Assembly: GCA_000442015.1 (NCBI GenBank)
Contig: KE561054.1
Location: forward strand, 1 to 64,000
Reading direction: 5' to 3'
Length of the DNA: 64,000 nt
Source of the DNA: Rozella allomycis CSF55
Taxonomy: Eukaryota
The notes beneath the pieces were generated by a model. That model was not told the DNA's origin, did not search any database, and saw only the letters and a list, made by a program, of their open reading frames with translations. The translations under genes were made by a program, and so were the position numbers. This document shows positions 14,612-17,600 of the stretch, one piece after another (the stretch's first letter is position 1; each line of letters begins with the position of its first letter).

Positions 14612-17600
14612 TTATTGAAAGTAATCATCACGATCGTAGGCTTCAGCCACTTGCAAGTCGGTGAAATTCATAAAATGGAATGGACGATGAGATTCGTGGT
14701 AAAAGTCTTTTGGCGTGTCAATTTTGAGAGAATAAGTGAGTTTGTCGGACATGTTGACGCCTTGAAAGTTGTAATTCCAACTACCGTTTTCAGGGACCAT
14801 AAAGTAACCAAAGAATCTATCAGACAGGATCATTTGAGATTTTTCATAGAGAGAAGGATTGTAACCTTTTAAGGGAAATGAATAGAAATACCTGGAGGAT
14901 GAGTGTTTGTTGAATAGAGCAAATCTTTGTTTTCTCTTCCCCATTCATAGCCCGCAGTTGTTAATTTGTAAGAGACTAGAGAGCATGAACCAGGAGTGAA
15001 AGAACAGGTGATGATGCACGTCTTGTCACCGTTCCAGTTACCGTCAGAGTTGTGAATGAATTTCGAGTGCTGAATAATGTCGTGGGAAGACAATTGGCCA
15101 AGTTCATTTGGTTGAGTGTGAATCCAACCCAACGGTTCTAAATTTTCATGTAGAGGAATTAAGTCAGGCAAATGAACTACTTGATGTGTACCCCATTGAG
15201 GAACAAGAGCAATACATTTAATTTCTTTAATTTGAGGATTATCTTTCGGACTGGATCCAAAAATAAATCTAAATTAAAGATTGGAATAATCTTTACCCAT
15301 GCACAATAGTTCTTAGATCAGAAATTGTGATAAATTTCTTTAATAAATTTTTGGGGAAAACAAAAGTGTAACCCTTGTCGGATAGATCATCAGAATTAAC
15401 GAAAATATTTCTAGTCCTCAAGACTAAATTTGAACAAGAAATGGCTCTAATTCTCCAATCAGTTTTAGAAGCGAAAGAACTTGTTTCATAATTAGAAGTT
15501 GTTGTTGTGATTAATTGATCACCATGAACGTTTGTTGTTTTAGTTGTTACTGCAGTTAGTTGAGATTGTTCTTTGCCCTTTAATTAAACAATGTTATTTA
15601 AATTACTTGTTTTTCAACATCAATTATTTGTTGTCTTTGTTGAGTTGGAGCAGCAATTTCCATTCCAAGAATAATATCTCTAATTTCAGCTTGTGTTAAT
15701 GAAGTAATTGAAACATTATTCTTCTTTCCAAAATCATTCAAAATCAAATCTTTCAATTCAATCTATTAATGAAATTTAAATAAAAATACTTCAACTTTGA
15801 TCCAATCATCATCAGATAAACTTGGCCAGATGTGATGAGGTTCAGTAATAACAGTTCTATCTGGTCTCAATATAATCTTTGTCTTTTCTGAATTAATATG
15901 CATAGAACGTAACACAAGAACAAGTCTACTAAATGCAGTATAACTACTAATGCTCTTTAACCAATCATCATATAAACTATTATATTATTTAAAAGATTTT
16001 TCTACTTGAATAAAACCATTTGAGGTTCAGTGGCTTTTAAGATTAGATCACCAAATTTCTCAATCTTTAAGCAAGCTTGAAATGGTAATTGCAATTCAGA
16101 ACCTTTAATTAATATTTGAAATCTTTGATACCTTTGATTTATATTTGAAATATTTGATACCTTTGATGATAATGTTTGGAAAATCTAATAAATGAACTTC
16201 TAAAGGATCCAACATTCCTTTTCTAGTGACAATAATTTGCTTTGGTTGTTCTTCAACTGGTAGAGATCTAATCAAAGCAGCAACTTCTTCAGCTGTTTTC
16301 CACTTGGCCAATTGACCCAATCTCTTTTGACCAGCCCACACACTAGTATGAATAATCTTTAAGAATAATTGACCAGTTCTTGGATTAAAAATGAAAATAG
16401 CTCCATTAATTGGTTTTGTTGTTAAATTGCCTTCAAATGTTTTATGGATTGTCACTCTGTACACATTTGTATCATCAACAAACCAAATCACTTGATTGCT
16501 AAACAATTCTCCATAATTCTGACTATTCAAATATGGTTCAATTGGTTCAGATGAATACAATTGCAATCCTTTTCTTATTCTCTCTCTTAACACATAGAGG
16601 GCTGGTGAAGCTTTCATTATCTTTGCCATTGCTTGTTGAACCAATGGTTTCATTCCTGGAAACCAATTGCCATAAGCAGAGTACATATTATAACACAAAT
16701 CAATTGAAATCAACAATCCAGTTGGTGATGGATAAATACCTATTAATGGATTAAAATAACAACATCTTACCTAGCATTATGTGAAATTGCTTCTATTTAC
16801 CTATAATTAAACAACACTAATACTATTTACCTATAATTACACAACATTAAGATCATCTTACTCATGTTGTCTGTCGTGTAGTCTAAAAATTTGGCTCTGG
16901 AATATCTTTCAATATCATGAGANCAATTTAAATAATATCATCTTACCTAGCATTATGTGAAATTGATACTATTTACCTATAATTAAACAACACTAATACT
17001 ATTTACCTATAATTAATCTAATATCATCTTACTCATGTTGTCAGTCGTGTAGTCTAAAAATTTGGCTCTGGAATATCTTTCAATATCATGAGAATCAAAA
17101 TCACCCCATCTCAATTGAACATCCAACCAATATTTCTGACTCGTTATTCCATCAAATGAATCTCTTGAATCATACAACAATGATGGTTTGCTAACATTCC
17201 ACTTGTACGTTGCAAACAACAATATATCAGCACATGAACTATTAAATACTTTCAAAAATAGATTACCTGTTCATTTTGTATGATTTTCTTGGATGAATTG
17301 TTTCTTTTTGANCCATTACAAGCATAATTACCTGTTCATTTTGTATGATTTTCTTGGATGAATTGTTTCTTTTTGAACAGTTTCTATTTCCAATGCATCC
17401 ATCTCTTGATCAAACACTTGACACAAATCCATAACAACAGACTCGTGAATCTTTTGCCACAAATGAGCTCGAAATATTTGAATTAATGAAATCTTCAACG
17501 TCGGTATCTTTCCATGCATAAATATACCTATTCTATTTCAAATTAAACATTATTTACCTGTCAAGTCTAATTGAACTTGAAATCCAATGTAAACACTAGC

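Follow-up and report, generated by a model that had tools for sequence, protein, structure and literature searches.

Several systems are known in which more than one splicing reaction takes place within a single intervening sequence. In recursive splicing, described in passages of two preprints for the ratchet points of Drosophila and for two cases in S. pombe, a 3' splice site stands directly against a 5' splice site in a shared AG|GT inside the intervening sequence, which can thereby be taken out in pieces (bioRxiv 10.1101/226894; 10.1101/006163). Only a few such sites occur, they delimit long pieces, and removal proceeds 5'-to-3', since the preceding step regenerates the 5' site. The stwintrons of ascomycete fungi, as presented in passages of PMC8469720, likewise contain more than one canonical U2 intron and are removed by consecutive standard reactions. 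There, the internal intron interrupts the donor, the branch element or the acceptor of the external one, resulting in an obligatory order. Intron gain by tandem duplication also yields new splice-site pairs, in repeat units with their own donor and acceptor; in the classical model, an exonic AGGT segment is duplicated and an intron arises at a new place. Human introns derived from tandem arrays were reportedly described by Zhuo et al. in 2007. The tandem-duplication model is mentioned in parts of PMC8469720 and PMC12862383. Finally, the ultra-short-intron genomes (Paramecium, Nyctotherus, Stentor, myxozoans and microsporidia) have narrow intron lengths near the splicing minimum, according to passages of PMC5014332, PMC2633312, PMC9505925 and PMC13644364. 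Abutting tandem introns are not mentioned in the passages on ultra-short introns of PMC12862383 and PMC13644364.

The interruption of the PRP8 gene of Rozella allomycis CSF55 described here can be set beside each of these. It lies in a 64,000-nt stretch of contig KE561054.1, the whole of which is called the window. Like a ratchet point, it has AG|GT junctions, but its pieces are complete introns of standard size, paralogous to each other and, in a neighbouring array, differing in number between alleles, and their removal would be free of order if the internal sites are used. The arrangement of a stwintron is not found, as the units abut exactly and their GTA... starts and ...AG ends are unbroken. 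In contrast to the classical duplication model, an existing intron appears to have been duplicated whole and in place, with no new position and no coding change. Short or tandem introns of Rozella are not described in any paper returned by the literature searches, nor in the Rozella passages of PMC8476143, PMC9457484, PMC10845963, PMC6349667 and PMC6944219; the genome paper (DOI 10.1016/j.cub.2013.06.057), Zhuo et al. 2007 or supplements may hold one.

The PRP8 gene is located on the minus strand (14612..22488). The homology-validated model has 15 intron positions, 12 with single introns of 26-30 nt and three with arrays, and gives 2327 aa when spliced. Over residues 1-1699, its alignment with P0002 (an NCBI entry for a partial PROCN-domain protein of R. 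allomycis CSF55) shows 100% identity and 0 gaps, and P0007, P0013 and P0059 each align in a single HSP at ~80% identity. The largest array, delimited from the sequence and by a tiling scan, is 122-nt-long (16861-16740, minus strand, phase 1) and is inserted inside a Ser codon, with the exon flanks ...DNM(A|GT=S)IYPSP. Across it, the P0002 model reads ...DNMSIYPSP. The whole array must be removed, because 122 nt shifts the frame and the homologues are continuous at this site.

This array is made of four units of 31 nt (16861-16831), 30 nt (16830-16801), 30 nt (16800-16771) and 31 nt (16770-16740), all of which start with GTAA and end with TAG and abut each other with no spacer. A second copy, on the same strand and delimited in the same way, ends at the single N at position 16923 (17032-16924). 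It represents the other allele and consists of units of 26 nt (17032-17007), 30 nt (17006-16977) and 30 nt (16976-16947), followed by the first 23 nt of a fourth unit cut by the N (16946-16924). The complete allele B, taken from record 1 of the separately assembled run X1, has units of 26/30/30/31 nt and a length of 117 nt. In both alleles, the three internal junctions read TAG|GTAA, a zero-length-exon arrangement in which each 3' site is placed directly against the next 5' site. The unit lengths of copy A, the coordinates of copy B and the intact junctions of both are exactly those given in the preliminary description of this DNA. Arrays of at least three abutting GTA..AG units of 24-34 nt did not occur in any of 30 first-order Markov shuffles of the window, which excludes a chance origin. 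As candidate branch points, TAAT-type motifs were seen by eye in the four PRP8 units, at a distance of 3-10 nt from the AG on its 5' side, and likewise in many of the single introns.

Two smaller arrays interrupt the same gene on the minus strand, at 16103..16160 (29+29 nt, interiors 84% identical) and at 17786..17841 (28+28 nt). An apparent third unit next to the latter (17785-17760) was dropped as coding sequence or unsupported. Three further arrays are present among the 13 intron positions of an ENA-type P-type ATPase gene on the plus strand. The first (41637..41749) has four units of 28/28/28/29 nt, with no difference between units 1 and 2 and 89% identity for unit 3. The second (42337..42392) has units of 29+27 nt with unrelated interiors (identity 0.47), and the third (44367..44425) has units of 28+31 nt and lies within the codon preceding DGVNDAP. 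Least-cost spliced paths, which retained or mis-cut arrays, had given ATPase introns of 59 nt and 88 nt. These were replaced by introns of 26 nt each (42635-42660 and 45237-45262), and the model aligns end to end with its homologues.

The intron census covers these two genes of the 64-kb window; homology, and not internal structure, decided where the introns lie. Single introns of 24-30 nt occupy 22 of the 28 positions. The other six hold longer introns (54-122 nt), and in all six the sequence divides exactly into GT..AG units, 16 in total, that measure 27-31 nt each. Introns of 32-53 nt, or long introns without tiling, were not found at any of the 28 positions. All 16 units start with GTA and end with AG, giving 10 internal AG|GT junctions over the six arrays, and their G+C content and the position counts at their 5' and 3' ends resemble those of the 22 single introns. 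Their length of 27-31 nt (26 nt in unit 1 of allele B) corresponds to the range of the singles. By splice-site consensus and length, each unit would thus qualify as a U2-type GT-AG mini-intron. An ORF-bridging scan of all genes (607 clusters, mostly spurious) and a GC-weighted spliced-ORF finder with noisy models were left out of the census, and long untiled introns may occur in the other genes. Candidate arrays at 4578, 10703, 38416, 53247, 57972 and 62338 (tiling scan) and at 2782 and 57991 (ORF-bridging scan) were rejected as unsupported or as one intron together with coding sequence.

We consider it rather probable (roughly 0.6) that the PRP8 interruption is an intron minisatellite, in which individually spliceable mini-introns stand head to tail and are spliced out stepwise. 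An intron of ~30 nt would have been tandemly duplicated into four complete spliceosomal mini-introns with zero-length exons between them, each provided with a GTA(A) 5' site and an A/T-rich ...TAAT..(T/A)AG 3' module of its own. At most four ordinary splicing reactions would then take out the units. As every unit boundary reads AG|GT, the same mRNA results from any order and from any pairing of a donor with a downstream acceptor, so that the message is not harmed when a whole intron is duplicated. In the manner of minisatellites, these arrays may gain, lose and reshuffle units. The internal sites would be in use, and they may have been retained because the spliceosome of this organism takes only introns of ~24-31 nt. 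A hard length ceiling is not a given, since microsporidian relatives with short introns also splice a relatively long intron class (in passages of PMC6349667). The more general proposal, that R. allomycis splices only introns of ~24-31 nt and that all longer ones are concatenations of units, removed singly and varying between alleles, is offered tentatively, at a little under even odds.

The relationship between the units was determined from the identity of their interiors. Among 231 pairs of unrelated single introns, this identity is 0.52 +/- 0.11 (95th percentile 0.69, maximum 0.78). Values of 0.76-1.0 were obtained for units 1 and 2 of the four-unit PRP8 array (0.76, with a 30-nt out-of-register repeat of 92% identity), for the PRP8 array at 16103..16160, for units 1 to 3 of the four-unit ATPase array and for the ATPase array at 44367..44425. 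TRF reports repeats of period 28 to 30 in 16101-16167, 16793-16850, 17779-17843 and 41634-41733, which fall in four of the six arrays. The interiors of PRP8 units 3 and 4 and of both units at 42337..42392 are at the baseline (0.47-0.57), with intact AG|GTA junctions; PRP8 units 3 and 4 keep full 5' and 3' splice signals despite interiors no closer than those of unrelated introns. Likeness reaching past the splice signals, as expected from tandem duplication, is accordingly seen for several unit pairs and not for PRP8 units 3/4 or the array at 42337..42392, which are read as old units with their signals preserved. Turnover is visible between the alleles. The array at 16103..16160 has two units in the window and one in the other haplotype, where X1 and X5 carry a 29-nt deletion at 16108; X3 record 8 crosses it gap-free, with two units as in the window. 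Unit 1 of the four-unit array is 31-nt-long in one haplotype and 26-nt-long in the other, and in allele B, units 3 and 4 resemble units 2 and 1 more closely in their 5' parts, a pattern consistent with conversion inside the array. Dispersed similar copies of the introner type were not found among the single introns of the two genes in this window, similarity being limited to neighbours within arrays.

The alternative that survives best is a single ordinary intron of 117/122 nt, removed in one step through its outermost sites, with the internal TAG|GTAA junctions as idle leftovers of recent duplication or homogenisation. The likeness of units 1 and 2 and the putative conversion in allele B speak for it, and the match to P0002 needs the removal of the whole block only. 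It also fits the comparison of the two alleles at the heptamers of the internal sites, each of which the preliminary description inferred to be under selection. The three heptamers are unchanged between A and B (0 of 21 positions, against 9 of 101 elsewhere), which is not significant (Fisher p=0.36). With 8 nt on each side of the junctions, the counts are 0/48 and 9/58 (p=0.004 by sites), but treating the clustered changes as 4-6 events puts the probability that every one of them misses those 48 nt at 0.05-0.14. In favour of the stepwise reading, the 9 substitutions and the 5-nt indel are all located at unit positions 9-23, leaving the first and last 8 nt of every unit untouched (0/64 vs 9/58, p=0.0009 by sites). 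Young duplicates retain their junctions even without selection, and since units 1 and 2 are recent duplicates, the identity of their junctions is in part mere youth. Selection on each internal splice site is plausible from the sequences, but the comparison of two copies does not demonstrate it; of the earlier claim, the unchanged junctions stand and the selection is weakly carried.

Stronger support for unit function is provided by the tiling of six out of six long introns. Removal in one step leaves unexplained why these are all in register, with no untiled intron above 31 nt among the 28 positions, and why units with unrelated interiors have complete 5' and 3' modules. Nor does the 122-nt RNA fold in a way that would bring its ends together (z=+0.49; 135 of 200 shuffles fold equally well or better). 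Together with the lack of any Rfam match at E<=1 in 15900-18000, this folding result speaks against a structured or non-coding RNA in the intron. On balance, removal in one step appears rather unlikely.

A regulatory role of the arrays is also conceivable. Maturation of an mRNA that needs several splicing events would depend steeply on splicing capacity, and PRP8 could act as an autoregulatory sensor whose partly spliced forms are destroyed via in-frame stops. Three arrays do occur in the gene of a core spliceosome protein, and retained units carry such stops, for example in allele B, where the 117 nt do not shift the frame. S. pombe makes use of intron retention in the gene of a splicing factor, according to bioRxiv 10.1101/226894. 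However, the unrelated ATPase gene has as many arrays, and the allelic difference in unit number argues for near-neutral turnover, so that this explanation is regarded as improbable.

The allele comparison involves two copies that meet at an assembly join. Position 16923 is a single-N scaffold join of two contigs of different alleles, whose ends overlap by ~170 nt; in the alignment of 16750-16922 with 16926-17093, 160 of 168 positions are identical, with 5 gap letters. The join doubles an exon segment (17033-17093, minus strand, equivalent to 16862-16922) with one synonymous difference, ACA/ACT, and the variant 16872 T>A is present in X1, X3 and X5. All 21 Ns of the window are single. At eight of them, the end bases of the left flank recur to the right of the N with 90-99% identity, and in seven of these eight the repeat begins at most 3 nt from the N. 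The side-by-side duplicate at N16923 is thus a scaffolding artefact and not a structure of the genome.

Copy B itself is a real allele. Between copies A and B there is no difference in unit 2. Unit 3 has 2 changed positions, unit 1 a 5-nt indel and substitutions, and unit 4 has 5 differences over the 23 nt present in B. The X1 contig (4783 nt, depth 324) covers 15500-16922 with every copy-B variant, spans the four units and both flanks and supplies the part of unit 4 missing from the window; as X1 possibly belongs to the source data of the window, it counts as an independent assembly and not as an independent sample. In sample S3 of another study, pieces of either type, A-like as well as B-like, occur (runs X3 and X5), and X3 record 12 (16691-16782) equals the copy A allele with 0 differences. 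The exonic differences in the N-overlaps leave the peptide unchanged, which is expected of alleles rather than of errors, and R. allomycis is called diploid in a passage of PMC10845963. These data bear out the two haplotypes of the preliminary description, including the indel and substitutions of unit 1 and the strongly different unit 4, and make it very unlikely that copy B is an assembly chimera. The idea that copy B or the whole array is an artefact, caused by chimerism, by wrong expansion of a repeat or by many errors at contig ends, draws on the scaffolding origin of the duplicate and on the concentration of differences near the start of right-hand contigs, and is scarcely credible given that X1 passes all four units with copy-B variants, that X3/X5 hold both alleles and that the peptide is untouched.

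Little can be said on the age of the intron from PRP8 loci in metagenomes. A scan with the exon that lies downstream of the array returned 80 of them (90-94% identity), 75 of which are coding without interruption across DNMS|IYPS and 5 of which fall outside the pattern used; the sample is biased to uninterrupted matches and contains no recognisable relative of Rozella. None of the runs listed as containing 15500-16922 is recorded as RNA. Four pieces from RNA run X12 (36-80 nt, 90-95% identity, unlike flanks), considered as a PRP8 transcript, were read as the PRP8 of another organism.

Intron multiplication and the limits that splicing sets on intron length are long-standing problems for which ongoing cases are scarce. 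At 16103..16160, one allele has a whole intron more than the other, which exposes such a duplication as allelic variation. Such copies sit harmlessly in essential genes because each can in principle remove itself. In practice, annotation pipelines will call such arrays single long introns, and the published assembly carries unmerged allelic overlaps at single-N joins, which double exon pieces. If the internal sites are used, the arrays would provide a simple natural system for splicing over zero-length exons and a test of the upper length limit for a spliceosome tuned to minimal introns, and selection on splice signals would become measurable from the variation within arrays and between alleles. 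If R. allomycis does splice only introns of ~24-31 nt, its arrays would represent an ongoing, population-level duplication and loss of introns, and nature would offer in them an instance of splicing that has to run in several steps.

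A four-unit array of abutting mini-introns was found in the PRP8 gene, read on the minus strand between exons encoding ...TTDNM and (S)IYPSPTG. The units of copy A occupy 16861-16831 (31 nt), 16830-16801 (30 nt), 16800-16771 (30 nt) and 16770-16740 (31 nt), with GTAA at each start and TAG at each end. On the other side of N16923, both the exon end and the array are repeated. This copy B (also minus strand) has units at 17032-17007 (26 nt), 17006-16977 (30 nt) and 16976-16947 (30 nt), followed by the first 23 nt of unit 4 (16946-16924). A tiling scan returned exactly the unit coordinates and lengths of the preliminary description for both copies, confirming its four-unit intron. 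Arrays of at least three such units were absent from 30 shuffles of the window.

To build gene models, tblastn hits were used to guide least-cost spliced paths; the arrays and two ATPase introns then required manual correction, and translation served to validate the final models. The PRP8 gene runs from 22488 to 14612 on the minus strand. Its model encodes 2327 aa with one stop, which is terminal, aligns in one piece with three fungal PRP8 proteins (~80% identity), and is 100% identical without gaps over 1699 aa to the NCBI record “PROCN-domain-containing protein, partial” of Rozella allomycis CSF55; a 553-aa exon is likewise 100% identical to this record. On the plus strand, a gene from 41330 to ~45300 encodes 1155 aa and aligns end to end with three P-type ATPases, and some matches of the homologue search are named sodium/potassium-exporting P-type ATPase. 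Its cytoplasmic domain (43160-43870, plus strand) contains low-complexity Gly/Val/Glu-rich inserts (GVEGVE-type repeats, TRF periods 9-21), which coincide with the strongest GC skew of the window (+0.48 at 42001-44000). The window is AT-rich, with a G+C content of 31-39% in most 2-kb bins; the lowest values are found at 30001-32000 (0.238) and 6001-8000 (0.274).

In PRP8, 15 positions are occupied by introns, namely 12 single introns (26-30 nt), the four-unit array, and two two-unit arrays on the minus strand at 17841-17786 (28+28 nt) and 16160-16103 (29+29 nt). The 13 positions of the ATPase gene comprise 10 single introns (24-30 nt), two-unit arrays at 42337-42392 (29+27 nt) and 44367-44425 (28+31 nt), and a four-unit array at 41637-41749 (28/28/28/29 nt), all on the plus strand. 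Thus, single mini-introns occupy 22 of the 28 homology-located positions, and each of the six longer introns divides without remainder into GT..AG units of 27-31 nt, 16 in total. Among these 28 positions in two genes, introns with lengths between 31 and 54 nt were absent, and every long intron contained in-register AG/GT.

The window contains 21 Ns, each standing alone. At eight of them, the sequence ending at the N restarts directly after it, with 90-99% identity over 33-514 nt; N38679 has a similar but offset overlap. Single-N joins span 1531-43286 (e.g., 12756, 16923, 17312, 20064, 23899, 25268 and 43286), and the differences at the overlaps cluster immediately after the N. A 67-nt tandem repeat (35319-35507, 2.8 copies, 88% identity) starts directly after N35317. 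The stretches repeated across the Ns are overlapping contig ends, joined by an N without merging; the tandem arrangement of copies A and B is therefore an artefact, and the exon and intron stretches written twice break the reading frames of PRP8 and the ATPase gene. Copy B itself is no artefact. When Logan contigs from four public sequencing runs were aligned to 15500-16922, one 4783-nt contig of run X1 spanned the whole region and differed from the window exactly at the copy-B positions (16748, 16749, 16753, 16760, 16762, 16790, 16792, 16842, 16851 and 16872) and by five bases deleted in unit 1, although X1, possibly the source data of the window, counts as an independent assembly and not as an independent sample. 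This contig completes allele B (26/30/30/31 nt, 117 nt in total). Sample S3, from a separate study (runs X3 and X5), holds both forms: X3 record 12 is allele A without differences over 16691-16782, and allele-B variants occur in X3 record 13 and X5 record 16. The two haplotypes of the preliminary description are supported by these contigs. Exonic overlaps give the same peptide from both copies although several bases differ: at N20064, 81/84 nt are identical and both copies read as the same 24 residues, and at N12756 the spacing of the differences suggests third codon positions. This is what alleles, rather than sequencing errors, would look like, and two figure legends in PMC10845963 label R. 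allomycis as diploid. Divergence is patchy (19979-20063 versus 20065-20148; 12242-12310 versus 12758-12826), with several differences within ~40-70 nt of coding sequence, an unchanged peptide and long identical stretches adjoining, a pattern suggestive of haplotypes pieced together from old and recently homogenised segments.

Unit number is itself an allelic polymorphism. The array at 16103-16160 (minus strand) has two units in the window and in X3 record 8, and the other haplotype (X1 and X5 contigs) lacks exactly 29 nt at 16108, one unit. In the RNA run X12, short pieces 90-95% alike lie within 16158-16239 and 16561-16596, two of them ending at the exon edge adjoining this array (16158 and 16160); they probably derive from the PRP8 of a different organism contributing to the sample, which may share an intron at this position. 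Tandem Repeats Finder reported periods of 28-30 nt at 16101-16167, 16793-16850, 17779-17843 and 41634-41733. At 16793-16850 the repeat does not keep the register of the units: it spans the 3' part of unit 1 through the 5' part of unit 3, a layout consistent with a 30-nt duplication that raised the unit count from three to four. After trimming of splice signals, 231 pairs of unrelated single introns gave a baseline interior identity of 0.52 ± 0.11 (95th percentile 0.69). Identity reaches 1.0 for units 1-2 of the ATPase array at 41637 and 0.89 for its units 1-3 and 2-3, 0.84 for the PRP8 pair at 16160, and 0.76 for both units 1-2 of the PRP8 array at 16861 and the ATPase pair at 44367; it is 0.48-0.57 for all pairs with PRP8 unit 3 or 4 and 0.47 for the ATPase pair at 42337. 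Given this range, the arrays mix fresh copies with units that have diverged too far for their interiors to be recognised as related.

The best-supported reading of these sequences is that each unit may act as a self-sufficient mini-intron, since long introns occur exclusively as in-register arrays, units match single introns in length and end consensus, and units with unrelated interiors retain full signals. Removal of any unit, or pairing of any donor with any downstream acceptor, would recreate the same kind of AG/GT junction. As every boundary is AG/GT, all splicing routes would give the same mRNA, and duplication of a whole intron would be tolerated in an essential gene. We infer use of the internal sites, and also that this organism would be unable to splice 117-122 nt in one step.

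The chief competing explanation is one long intron whose internal sites stand idle. That some units are young favours it, whereas the tiling of all six long introns in the census and the presence of old units argue against it. It also gains from the weakness of the allele comparison. Within the array, alleles A and B differ by nine substitutions and the 5-nt indel, all at unit positions 9-23; the outermost 8 nt at either end of every unit are unchanged. The three TAG/GTAA heptamers carry 0/21 changes versus 9/101 elsewhere (p=0.36), the 8 nt on each side of the three junctions 0/48 versus 9/58 in unit middles (p=0.004), and all unit ends 0/64 versus 9/58 (p=0.0009), p-values that assume independent sites whereas the changes are in fact clustered. 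Several changes bring units 3 and 4 of allele B closer to its units 2 and 1, on the 5' side, which points to a small number of multi-base events or to conversion inside the array. Counted as 4-6 events, the chance of none in the 48 junction-flanking bases is 0.05-0.14. Intron interiors seem far more divergent between alleles than the adjoining exons. A single 28-nt PRP8 intron at N17312 (17239-17266 versus 17316-17330, minus strand) shows the same pattern, its second copy reading GTAAT, after which most positions differ until the N; the allele contrast therefore fits every unit behaving as an ordinary intron and does not demonstrate selection on internal sites. Such selection, proposed in the preliminary description, is plausible, but the contrast behind it is under-powered. 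Support for the remaining alternatives is slight: folding of the array RNA is no stronger than that of shuffled sequence (z=+0.49), no Rfam family matches it, and although a regulatory role in PRP8 is possible, arrays are equally numerous in the ATPase gene.

Compared with known systems, the abutting units resemble recursive splicing, in which zero-length exons have been described in Drosophila and in two S. pombe introns (bioRxiv 10.1101/006163 and 10.1101/226894), in that a 3' site abuts a 5' site. They differ in that the Rozella pieces are minimal introns, paralogous to each other and varying in number between alleles. The array is not a stwintron, as defined in PMC8469720, because none of its splice elements is interrupted. 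Gain of introns by tandem duplication is a related process; however, that model copies an exonic AGGT segment, whereas in Rozella the copy is made, in place, from an intron already present. Our literature search found neither mini-introns nor tandem introns described for Rozella, although a prior description is possible, e.g., in the genome paper or supplements; passages of three Rozella papers discussing introns (PMC8476143, PMC6349667 and PMC6944219) do not mention them. Polymorphic tandem arrays of complete mini-introns, which account for six of the 28 intron positions examined in the two genes, appear to be a new form of phenomena already known and are worth testing at the RNA level.
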